From: an archaeon
GTDB lineage: Archaea > Iainarchaeota > Iainarchaeia > Iainarchaeales > 1-14-0-10-31-34
DNA: 9,418 nucleotides
Direction of reading: 5' to 3'
Assembly (NCBI GenBank): GCA_043815885.1
Contig: JBDRIL010000025.1
Span: 1 to 9,418, forward strand
How positions within the stretch are numbered: position 1 is the first letter of the stretch; the number at the start of each line of letters is the position of its first letter. Made by a program: the position numbers. Shown one piece after another: positions 6,001 to 9,000 of the stretch.

Positions 6001-9000
6001 CACCTTCAGTGCTTATTGTTCCTGTTATGTGCCTGAATCTGCCTGGAAGGGTCATAGAGGAAAAGGGAAAGGAAGCAGTAGTTGACTTTAAGGGAGTGAG
6101 GATTAAAGCAGCTAATGTGGTTAATGCAAAGAAAGGCGAATACGTTATAGTGCAGAATAATGTAATCATTGAAAGAATTTCAGGAAAGGAAGCACTGGAA
6201 ATACTGCAGTTAGTGGCAAAGAGAAAAAAAAAGAAAAAGAAGTCAGGTAGTTAAATCAATTCTCTTGTTTTTTACTTCTTTGTTCATATTGATGCAGTCC
6301 ATTGTGTGTTGGGTATAGTGCCTGAGTCTTCCGAATTGATTTAAATTCAATTCCATGCACGCAGTATTCCAATGGAATGCAATAAGGCTGTCTTCCTTCA
6401 GATTAGGGAATAATTCTGGAATGAAATCCAGTTCCTTTAAAGTTGAATCTCCGAACAATAGGTTTTCATTCAATGCTACAATGGGCTTAAAGGAAACCAT
6501 TAATTTGGTTTCTCCAAAGCTCGTTACCTTTCCAAATCCAATCCTGCAGGAATCCATGTATTCAACTACTGGAATCACTTTATCTGTTAGAGAGAGTAGC
6601 TGGAATACGTGAAAGGAATGGTGAGGCAGGGCTCCAGCAGGAAAATTTAATACCAGCTTCAATAAAATGTCTTCTGGAACTGAAGTGAATTTAGGGAATT
6701 CTGAATGAATCACTCTCTTTAAGGCAGAATCACTTACTTTTTCAAGCAATTCATTTCCAATCCAATAGGCTTCCACTGCCCTTTCATCCAAAGGGTCTCT
6801 TATGAAATTTGATTTGGCAATGAGTTTCAAGTAAGAGTAAGCAATACTGAATTCATGGACAGAGGAAGTTAATTCATTCTCCAGTTCTTTATTTCCTTTA
6901 AGGAATTCAATTATTTTTTTATGGATTCCTTCAGGACCGCAGTAATTCAATTTATTTGGAGGAAAAGCAAAACGAAAAAAGGTCTCCAGGCCATCAGGAC
7001 TCATTTTTTAACGCCAAGAATATTTTGGTTAAGGAAAAACATTTTTTCCTGGAATTTTATAAGCAAAATTATTCCAGAAAAGAGAATAAAGTAAGAAATC
7101 AACTGCAAGGGAAGAAGTGTTTTAGAGAGGAAGAAGGAATTGAGTAATGCAGTTACTGGAAGGCCTAATAGAAGAATGGAAGTAGCCAGAGAAGCAGGAA
7201 TTCTCTTTAAGCCATTATACCAGGTGAAAACATAGGCAAAGAGGAAAATCGAGGTAAGCATCAGCCACGGGAAATGGTTTAGAGTGAGGGTTGAAATTAA
7301 GGAAATTTTTCCTGTTGAAAGAAGGAAGACCATAAGGAAGAGGGAACCGAAAAACATTCTTCCAAAGGCAACTGTTTTTGCTGAAAGCTCATTCAATACT
7401 TTCTTGGAAATAATGTTTTCTGTTGCCCACAGGAGAGTTGCTGCAAGAATCATTAAATCAAAGAAGGAAAAGGAAGAAAGGCTTACCCCAAAGAGAAGGA
7501 TTACTGAAAGAAGCAAGAGGAGAGATGCAAGCAATACTTTCTTGTTTATTCTTTCTTTCAGGAAAACCACTGCAAGAAACGCAACAAAGACAAATAATAG
7601 TTTGTGGAGAAAGGCCGCATTAATTGCCGTAGTGTAAGCCAAGGCATTAAAGAATAAAAGGAATGGAATGCTTCCCCCAATCAGGCCTATCGTCATTAGC
7701 TGAATCCAGTTCTTTCTTGAAAGGAGTTTTAATTCCTTTAAATCTTTCAGGAGAAAGAATAGAGAGAAAAGGAATACAGCAACAACTATGTTTTTCAAGG
7801 TAGTGAATAGGGATGGTTCAAAGGAAGCAACTGCAAATGAATTAAGGAAAATAGAAATGCCTGAAATCAGTGCAGTAGTTAAAACAAAAAACAATCCTTT
7901 CCTGAAAGAATTCAATCAATCCCCCTCAAAAAAATTCTCTAGTAAATTAAATTAATAGACAATTGTTTTTAATCTATCCCTTTCTCTTCAAAAACAAGCC
8001 ACACCAGCATCTTCCCTCATTCTTCCAGGTTTCATGGGTTTTAAAATTGCATGGACAGATTAATTCAAGGTCTCTTTCCCTGCTTCCGTCCCTCAGCCTG
8101 CAGGGACAGAGTTTAAGGCCGTGCTTTTTCTCGTTTTCAAGGACTCCATTTATCACCAATTCAACGTGCTGGAAGTCTGGATTGAGAATGAAATCATTTT
8201 TCTTGGTAAAGTTTTCCCAAACAGTTCTCAATTCCTCTTTATTCATAAGTTCATCACTTTTATTGCTTCCTGTTTCGTGACTTCAACGTAAGCATTTCTC
8301 GCCATGCAGGTGGGACAGATTTCAGGCCCTGCAATTCCATAATGAATGTCATTGCAGACATTGCATCTCCAAAAACTTTTTTCAGGCATTAATTCACCAT
8401 TTACAGTAAAGCACAAAAAATATTTGAATTGATTGTTCCAGAAAATAATTGAAATGAAGAAAGTATTTGTATTCGGGAATCCATTATTGGAGAAAGATTC
8501 AATTGCATTAAAGGCAGGAAAGGAACTGGAAAAGGAACTGAAGGGAATGGAATTCTATTTTATCCATGAACCGGAGGAAATGGATGAATTGAGTGAAAGG
8601 GAATGGAAGGAATTGGTTATACTGGATGCAGTTGAAGGAATAAAGGAAGTAAGGATAATTCCATTGGAGAAATTAGTGAAGGAAAGAAAGGTCACAGCAC
8701 ACGATCTGGATTTAGGGTTCTATCTGCAGTTAAAGAAAAAGCTGGGTGAATTAAAGGAAGTGAAAATCATTGGAATTCCAATGGAAATGAAGAAAGAAAA
8801 AGCAGTGGAAGAAACAAGGAAATTATTAAAAAAAAGCATATGATTTAAATACTAAAACAGCATAAAAGTAATAGAAAATACATTTTTATTGAATTAAAAA
8901 AAAGGAGGGCACAAAATGAATAAAATAATTTTATTGATGACGGTAATTGCATTAATGGCATCAATGATAATAATAGTAAAAGGCGGAGGAAGTGACGGAA

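Follow-up and report, generated by a model that had tools for sequence, protein, structure and literature searches.

A small cassette of genes, namely hypC, a gene of the DUF6390 family and an importer gene together with hycI, has the place and the distribution of hypD, hypE and hypF beside intact, conserved [NiFe]-hydrogenases of several groups. We consider it probable that this cassette replaces HypDEF functionally by some route. The survey's finding had proposed such a replacement, and the proposal draws support from a near-exclusion of the two gene sets in two lineages and from an in-place swap within one genus. As to the route, a preformed iron-cyano unit may be imported, received by DUF6390 and relayed by HypC, a reading that we hold to be evenly balanced between belief and doubt.

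Gene organization of the window

The window, the whole stretch of 9,418 nucleotides that was analysed, corresponds to contig C25; the genome to which it belongs measures 1.16 Mb, consists of 62 contigs and is 91.7% complete. It contains the following genes.

6027..6254, plus strand: HypC chaperone, 75 aa (PF01455, 54.1 bits vs. a cut-off of 28.5)
6243..7004, minus strand: DUF6390 protein, 253 aa (PF19927, 160 bits, E 9e-47)
7001..7915, minus strand: EamA/DMT permease, 304 aa (PF00892, two stretches, 125 bits)
7974..8246, minus strand: FeThRed_B-like protein, 90 aa (PF02943; same orientation as EamA)
8243..8416, minus strand: rubredoxin-like protein, 57 aa, a local passenger (PF21349, E 1e-7)
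8454..8843, plus strand: HycI-type hydrogenase maturation endopeptidase, 129 aa (PF01750, 27.2 bits vs. a cut-off of 23)

All five genes listed for this contig by the survey were found where it had placed them; the rubredoxin-like reading frame was missing from its list. HypC scored below the cut-off of TIGR00074 (38.6 vs. 48) and HycI under that of TIGR00072 (36.7). The hypC and DUF6390 genes are convergent and their 3' ends overlap by 12 bp, and the stop of the EamA gene overlaps the start of the DUF6390 gene as ATGA, read from the sequence. Among the loci compared, the FeThRed_B gene was present only at the window, in G097 (a HypDEF genome) and in G020, and the rubredoxin-like gene only at the window. 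FeThRed_B does not belong to the conserved module. The idea that it replaces the redox centre of HypD, which derives from structural work, was rejected because the gene is not conserved across loci. No RNA run carrying the window sequence was found among the matches listed. Contigs of one DNA run span several of the gene junctions, and this run may be the source sample itself.

An intact group 3b hydrogenase in a genome without HypD, HypE and HypF

The hydrogenase of this genome is encoded on contig C60 by a four-subunit group 3b operon downstream of GAPDH and PGK, with the subunits beta (fused to PGK), gamma, delta and alpha. Aligned with the solved enzymes 5yxy and 9nez, the large subunit carries Glu15, RICGVC (61–66), APRG-L (345–350), VPT (369–371) and DPCFSCSAH (409–417), and it has the four Cys and a 7-residue C-terminal tail. 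The survey had been right about DPCFSCSAH and the tail; RICGVC, which it had put at 60–66, begins one residue later. The features of group 3b are thus all present, namely four subunits, the L1 and L2 CxxC motifs, the catalytic Glu, the Arg, Pro and Thr that we take to form the pocket, and a cleavable tail. The closest solved proteins are the alpha subunits from T. kodakarensis and of sulfhydrogenase-1 (E ~1e-65).

No HypD was found in this 91.7% complete genome, and HypE, HypF, HypA and HypB gave only matches below the cut-offs. The controls for the Hyp profiles scored above the cut-off in 4 of 14 genomes. A tblastn search with the Hyp proteins of relatives agreed with the profile result, so that both searches bear out the reported lack of HypD, HypE and HypF over the cut-off. 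The absence of carbamoyl-phosphate synthase was considered as a further clue and found uninformative, since all four HypDEF-bearing relatives lack it too.

We then compared 66 complete large subunits, 62 of them from DUF6390 loci, after dropping six incomplete ones. Both CxxC motifs are present by selection; the APRG pattern was found in 55 and the PT/PS pattern in 56 of the 66, the misses being chiefly long group-1 types. Rough dN/dS ratios were 0.05–0.21 for the large subunit (7 pairs), 0.06–0.27 for DUF6390 (8 pairs) and 0.12–0.15 for EamA (3 pairs; a fourth was saturated). Judging by these ratios, all three proteins are under purifying selection and the enzymes are maintained. A cultured H2 oxidiser without hypDEF was not found in the literature searched.

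DUF6390 carries a barrel homologous to HypC

The HypC of the window keeps Cys2, which is invariant in 55 sequences, and has Gln in the column of the conserved His. In the passages of PMC12134894 this His is E. coli His51. It was retained in none of the 13 HypC proteins at module loci of the order and in all four beside HypD. Outside the order, it was kept at 18 of 46 DUF6390 loci, which counts against import of a preformed unit.

DUF6390 consists of a helical domain (residues ~1–150, with Cys22, His129 and His132) and a HypC-like barrel (~151–238, with Cys153 and His211). In 108 sequences, the invariant columns were C22, G23, H129, C153, H211 and W212, which confirms the three residues that the survey had called invariant (Cys22, His129 and Cys153) and adds His211. 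Among 160 DUF6390 copies at loci, C22 and H129 were present in all, and C153 and H211 in 159. The model of the protein (pLDDT 91.9) shows the helical part and the barrel. Searched with the DUF6390 profile, the PDB gave HypC as the best match (E 0.009), and His211 fell on the HypC His. A profile-profile comparison of the barrel with HypC yielded a probability of 95.4 and an E value of 2e-8. The top fold match of the model was HypC 2z1c (Z 5.5, a middling score; rmsd 2.0; 71 residues aligned), in agreement with the HypC-like barrel described previously. By sequence, profile and fold, the barrel of DUF6390 is a HypC homologue with its Cys and His in register. Cys153, however, is internal, behind a helical domain of 150 residues, and so lacks the free amino terminus that Cys2 has in HypC; this also counts against an imported unit.

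Other known families were not detected. PF19927 was the only match of DUF6390, and the protein has two invariant Cys, no CxxC and no [4Fe-4S] motif; it lies outside the HypD sequence family (PF01924 with the [4Fe-4S] and CxxC cysteines), and HypD was not among the matches listed in fold searches with the whole model. No match to hydrogenase large subunits was obtained with PF00374 or NCBIfam. Foldseek returned nothing at E 0.001 and only ribosomal OB folds, and a search of the Atlas with residues 1–150 returned nothing besides DUF6390, other matches having TM <0.45. A complex prediction for DUF6390 with HypC scored 0.02 (mark 0.32). DUF6390 is also fused to HTH regulators and, in one protein, to EamA (EamA-DUF6390, P0168).

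Distribution of DUF6390 and HypDEF

The order is Iainarchaeales according to the survey, and the name Ca. Diapherotrites borne by two homologues agrees with this. In 151 genomes of the order, the large subunit was found in 63, DUF6390 in 52, HypD in four, and DUF6390 together with HypD in none. DUF6390 occurred in 51 of the 63 hydrogenase genomes and in one of the 88 others. Eight hydrogenase genomes had neither DUF6390 nor HypD; six of these carry a short form of DUF6390 (see below), and G021 (83% complete) and G070 (85%) are left without DUF6390, short form or HypD. The survey's count of no HypD in the 41 genomes that it had searched does not carry over to this bigger sample, and all four genomes that have HypD (4/151) are without DUF6390.

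The same was seen in 201 Chloroflexota, with HypC in 112, HypD in 91 (two of them, G238 and G373, being unpublished genomes) and DUF6390 in 19. HypD and DUF6390 occurred together in none, compared with 15.4 expected. HypD was present in 91 of the 93 HypC-bearing genomes without DUF6390, and all 19 genomes with DUF6390 lacked HypD; the two HypC genomes with neither had partial matches. As related genomes are not independent, we relied on no test statistic.

A search of GTDB for DUF6390 gave 359 stretches, of which the best 80 were analysed. In these 80, DUF6390 flanks hydrogenases of group 3b, of 1h type and of other group-1 operons, labels that are based on the neighbours and on what we take to be the group motifs. 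Within 8 kb of DUF6390, hypD, hypF and true hypE genes were absent from all 80. From the same 80, 50 genomes were picked, mostly non-Patescibacteria, and 30 relatives were added. HypD, HypE and HypF were missing together in 47 of the 50 DUF6390 genomes of other phyla; each was present in the same three, one of which is the unpublished G181, and these three count against the proposal. Among the relatives with DUF6390 or the short form, HypF and HypE were absent in 26 of 26, and the four relatives with HypD had HypF in four and HypE in three. G016, a single contig that is 99% complete, is without all three proteins. The module without HypDEF was also found in free-living Chloroflexota, in Dormibacterota and in the isolate Pseudarthrobacter oxydans CC185. 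A host is therefore not generally required, and we dropped the idea that the precursor is as a rule supplied by a host.

Coexistence of DUF6390 with HypD, a caveat raised at the outset, does hold in Actinomycetes. DUF6390 was present in 32 of 301 genomes, and 12 of the 32 also had HypD, which in eight adjoins an intact DUF6390 gene (one being the unpublished G662). G529 has EamA-DUF6390 and HypD together. Both plasmid-borne DUF6390 copies found sit within full hyp clusters, which counts against the proposal. In a FastTree phylogeny of 160 DUF6390 copies, nine of the ten HypD-adjacent copies formed one clade nested among HypD-less lineages (support 97; midpoint root). Given this nesting, the tree suggests that DUF6390 beside HypD is a derived state, with the root placed by midpoint only.

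A short form of DUF6390 and an exchange in place

In G118, a 157-residue protein undetected by PF19927 is encoded between hypC and EamA. This short form and DUF6390 are homologues (probability 97.8, E 1e-12). Its Cys105 and His148 correspond to Cys153 and His211 of DUF6390, and its Cys14 and His83 are out of register with Cys22 and His129. HypC was the best fold match of the short-form models (Z 7.2 and 6.9), level with other OB folds; residues 105–157 align on residues 2–54 of 2z1c and reach 29.7 bits with PF01455. At 31 metagenome loci of the short form, we found HypC at 29, EamA at 26, HypA at 20, the large subunit at 11, and HypD, HypE and HypF at none. His83 and His148 were conserved in 31 of 31 sequences and Cys14 in 30 (one being truncated). 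The position of Cys105 was Cys in 24 and Ser in 7, and the Ser counts against the reading in which DUF6390 receives an imported unit. Searches of G021, G070, G072, G136 and the genome of the window yielded no short form.

Both gene sets occur in the genus g33. The gene order in G072 is hypA-hypC-hypD-hypE-hypF-small-large-hycI, and in G136 hypF likewise adjoins these structural genes, while hypA-C-D lie on a separate contig. In G118 and G146 the order is hypA-hypC-short form-EamA-small-large-hycI, and G130 shows the G118 type as far as its contig extends. Between G072 and G118, identity was 82.6% for the large subunit, 88.1% for the small subunit, 69.5% for HypA, 62.3% for HycI and 34.8% for HypC. 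Since these near-identical hydrogenases lie beside either gene set, both sets appear to serve such enzymes. To judge from these identities, HypC was exchanged along with the cassette, and neither the nickel chaperone nor the client was replaced. We regard this swap as the strongest sign that the two gene sets may deliver the same product.

The transporter and the nickel arm

The permease of the window has two EamA repeats, its Atlas neighbours are all EamA proteins, and among solved proteins it has only distant relatives (E 1e-6 and 2e-5). The EamA proteins at DUF6390 loci form a tight subfamily in which residues of polar and basic character are conserved, namely N42, H104, K105, E166, K171 and R186. 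Among the up to 11 candidates scored per genome, this subfamily was found in 10 of the 201 Chloroflexota, every one with DUF6390, and in none of the 91 HypD genomes. It was also absent from the four HypDEF relatives and, at E 1e-15, from plasmids. The link of EamA to this route that the survey had drawn therefore stands, apart from the host as the rule for its substrate.

A transporter lies within 1.5 kb of DUF6390 at 125 of 161 loci (EamA 107, SBP5 12, FecCD-type 3, AfuA-like 3), a count that includes two duplicates. The 10 HypD-adjacent loci among the 161 had none. No transporter was seen at 26, six of them with short flanks, and these 26 count against import. ABC systems of the SBP5, FecCD and AfuA-like types import metals or metal chelates. 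That such importers occur in exchange for EamA argues for an inward direction of transport. Characterised EamA proteins are often exporters, which counts against the import reading. For three SBP5 proteins adjacent to DUF6390, the best NCBIfam match was NikA, at 131–159 bits and below the TIGR02294 cut-off of 393; nickel as the substrate fits equally, a further point against an iron-cyano unit.

HypB was kept in two of five module genomes tested, P. oxydans CC185 (8 kb from DUF6390) and Dormiibacter, and was absent in the other three. This suggests that the iron arm was replaced and not the nickel arm. HypB was absent in three of the four HypDEF relatives too, so that variation in nickel delivery is not linked to the cassette. 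No cyanide-making enzyme recurred in the 80 DUF6390 neighbourhoods. Near DUF6390 there are often genes for thiol redox or sulfur carriers, namely thioredoxin reductase with glutaredoxin, type III SQR, and DsrE/TusA.

Discussion

DUF6390 has no redox centre, no ligand-making enzyme recurs nearby and the importer is absent from HypD genomes; the simplest reading is thus that DUF6390 is a receiver. DUF6390 may be a scaffold for Fe(CN)2CO. In the working model, HypDEF-bearing neighbours or a host would release a preformed iron-cyano(-carbonyl) complex, and the EamA permease or, instead, an ABC importer would bring it into the cell. DUF6390 would hold the complex between two Cys/His pairs, one in its helical domain and one in its barrel. 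According to PMC11565642 and PMC8692609, Fe(CN)2CO is held by HypD Cys41 and HypC Cys2 in a comparable way, and the proposal there is that HypC delivers it by itself. Free HypC could then pick up the unit on Cys2 and insert it into the apo-large subunit, its own His being dispensable. Nickel would come separately, by HypA and HypB where these are kept, and HycI would trim the tail. No description of free Fe(CN)2CO as stable enough for travel from cell to cell was found in the literature searched, a point against this model.

The distribution data would apply equally if DUF6390 took the place of HypD and built Fe(CN)2CO de novo from iron, free cyanide or thiocyanate, and CO from the surroundings. 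Importers of the FecCD and AfuA-like types are suited to iron, the passages of PMC12134894 describe the incorporation of exogenous CO at ~10 nM, and thiol-redox or sulfur-carrier genes are often nearby. The same passages describe the redox centres of HypD as essential, and the invariant columns of DUF6390 include neither a [4Fe-4S] nor a CxxC motif; moreover, the redox neighbours vary by lineage and FeThRed_B is not conserved. We consider de novo assembly unlikely; in this reading, the transporter would bring iron or a cyanide donor, and HypE and HypF would be dispensable because cyanide is scavenged.

A plain chaperone or transporter for nickel or bare iron, with the ligands made by an unlinked pathway or replaced by others, would agree with the lack of HypA and HypB over the cut-offs in the genome of the window, with SBP5 neighbours that match NikA best, with DUF6390 inside complete hyp clusters, and with the HTH-regulator fusions, which hint at ligand sensing. 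It leaves the exclusion of HypD unexplained. HypA is unmoved across the g33 swap and present at 20 of 31 short-form loci. The loss of HypB is not tied to DUF6390, as HypB occurs in P. oxydans and Dormiibacter and is missing in three of four HypDEF relatives. None of the 91 HypD genomes, which need nickel too, has the EamA subfamily, and the ligand pocket motifs of the large subunit are retained. We think it improbable that metal supply is the whole function. Very unlikely, in our view, is a pattern produced by incomplete genomes, or by enzymes that are inactive or have another role, with the cassette as a passenger. The genome of the window is indeed in 62 contigs and 91.7% complete, most genomes are metagenome assemblies with completeness figures only for handles below G151, and the literature searched held no culture evidence. 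Incompleteness, however, cannot give HypD in 91 of 93 HypC-bearing Chloroflexota without DUF6390 and in 0 of 19 with it; the single contig of G016, 99% complete, lacks all three proteins; and the large subunit, DUF6390 and EamA show purifying selection.

Compared with the HypC-HypD scaffold with HypE and HypF (E. coli; T. kodakarensis, 2z1c and 3vyr), the cassette shares HypC Cys2, a Cys/His pair, the endopeptidase and the clients, and in g33 it occupies the same slot, between hypC and the small subunit. It differs in having no HypD, HypE or HypF, no [4Fe-4S] and no CxxC, in carrying the His on a second barrel in DUF6390, and in being coupled to a dedicated transporter. For the import reading, the closest analogy in working mode would be HoxV/HupK with HoxL/HupF, in which, in the passages of PMC12134894, Fe(CN)2CO is first taken over by an intermediate holder and reaches the apo-large subunit via a HypC homologue. 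HoxV is similar to large subunits and acts downstream of HypCD, whereas DUF6390 has no such match and occurs mostly without HypDEF. Where HypDEF is present, DUF6390 might be a store or relay like HoxV/HupK, and this would also account for DUF6390 beside HypD.

Group 3b hydrogenases hyd1 and hyd2 of CPR, which are the same kind of enzyme as that on C60, have a neighbour family of which some members are HypC homologues (passages of Jaffe et al. 2020, PMC7304191). Neither the absence of hypD/E/F nor EamA nor a route of maturation is discussed in these passages or in four supplementary files. For archaeal [FeFe]-hydrogenases without HydEFG, the authors infer an alternative pathway (PMC11216029). 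That case likewise concerns a hydrogenase without canonical maturases and differs in enzyme class and cofactor; candidate genes are not named in the passages of that paper, and the present case offers a conserved cassette for this part. A 2025 review regards six Hyp proteins as necessary for the cofactor (passages of PMC12134894). Within the literature searched, subscription papers being outside its scope, no paper mentions "DUF6390", and no HypDEF-free route of [NiFe] maturation was found, including in CPR and DPANN. The supplementary gene tables of the preprints 10.1101/2020.08.06.239558 and 10.1101/457697 may list the cassette as hypothetical genes; the passages on T. roseum do not list its maturation genes. 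If the cassette works as proposed, the route would be a new one that draws partly on known parts.

The data point to a second route of maturation for most hydrogenase owners of one archaeal order (57/63) and for 19 of the 112 HypC-bearing Chloroflexota sampled. We suggest, with more doubt than confidence, that the Fe-CN-CO unit is a shared nutrient for which many DPANN, Patescibacteria, Chloroflexota and Actinomycetota are auxotrophs; they would take it up already assembled by way of a dedicated permease, with DUF6390 and HypC loading it, so that a cassette of 2–3 genes could mature the enzyme. If the cassette does replace HypDEF, it would account for genome-reduced cells that run [NiFe]-hydrogenases and would give an unstudied family a function. 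It would also mean that cells obtain an organometallic cofactor by cross-feeding or scavenge its ligands, and a far smaller maturation kit would become available for recombinant hydrogenases.

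Hydrogenase operon on contig C60

Two arrangements were observed on contig C60 of the same genome (G000), which carries the group-3b [NiFe]-hydrogenase operon (locus L005).

L005:6481-8682, in-frame fusion of phosphoglycerate kinase (PGK) and the hydrogenase beta subunit, 733 aa, within the GAPDH-PGK-hydrogenase operon
L005:462-1649, NikR (above the NCBIfam cut-offs) and two small membrane proteins, divergent

In genome G042 (L161), phosphoglycerate kinase and the beta subunit are encoded by two separate genes. The joining in G000 may represent a true fusion or the loss of a stop codon. 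The two small membrane proteins opposite NikR contain His and belong to no Pfam family, and the divergent genes lie 2 kb away from the hydrogenase large subunit. It is possible that NikR and the two membrane proteins form a nickel uptake unit distinct from the hypC-DUF6390-EamA cassette. This arrangement was not seen in the other loci compared.

Variants of the large subunit

The large subunits of families f27, f20 and f18 of the order (L155, L167, L168, L163), which are group-4-like, have a long tail and no His after the second CxxC. DUF6390-EamA was located at most about 7 kb from the large subunit in L155, L163 and L167. Of the 66 complete large subunits, 13 are tail-less, ending at the final His (L071, L073, L075, L077, L085 and eight more). 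No HycI was seen in these 13 loci, and their maturation genes were HypC, EamA and DUF6390 only.

Other genes of the window and its relatives

Further genes of the window were as follows.

4529-5916, geranylgeranyl reductase and a 2x[4Fe-4S] ferredoxin, ahead of hypC
8916-9278, ORF without a Pfam match, with a hydrophobic, signal-like N-terminal stretch
442-1101, ORF without a Pfam match
1088-1357, ORF without a Pfam match

The gene order geranylgeranyl reductase, ferredoxin, hypC was found again in genomes G001, G018 and G042. As for redox and sulfur genes, a sulfur-carrier set (ArsR, DsrE-like, TusA and SQR-like genes) comes after DUF6390 in L092, L098, L103 and L130, and thioredoxin reductase and glutaredoxin do so in several Patescibacteria. 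In G097 (L152:2649-7480), a HypDEF genome, there is also a FeThRed_B gene, five genes ahead of the canonical hypCDEF block.

Unusual copies and fusions of DUF6390

One contig of DNA run X1 showed many letter differences at window positions 6825-6897, in the amino-terminal region of DUF6390, together with a single insertion and a single deletion that are separated by 15 bases. These reflect either strain variation or an artefact of the alignment. The metagenome locus L292 carries the short form of DUF6390 and, on the opposite strand, a weak 56-bit match to the long form. In the tree, the copies of L078, L086, L094, L112, L121, L133 and L149 cluster with Woesearchaeota or Patescibacteria; therefore, the titles of these seven records (Methanosarcinales, Gammaproteobacteria or Pseudomonadales) may not name the true organism.

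DUF6390 was also joined C-terminally to HTH_3, GntR or ArsR-like domains or to EamA (P0199, P0236, P0240, P0168). The regulator-DUF6390 fusions may alternatively be read-through gene calls; taken as fusions, they suggest ligand sensing.
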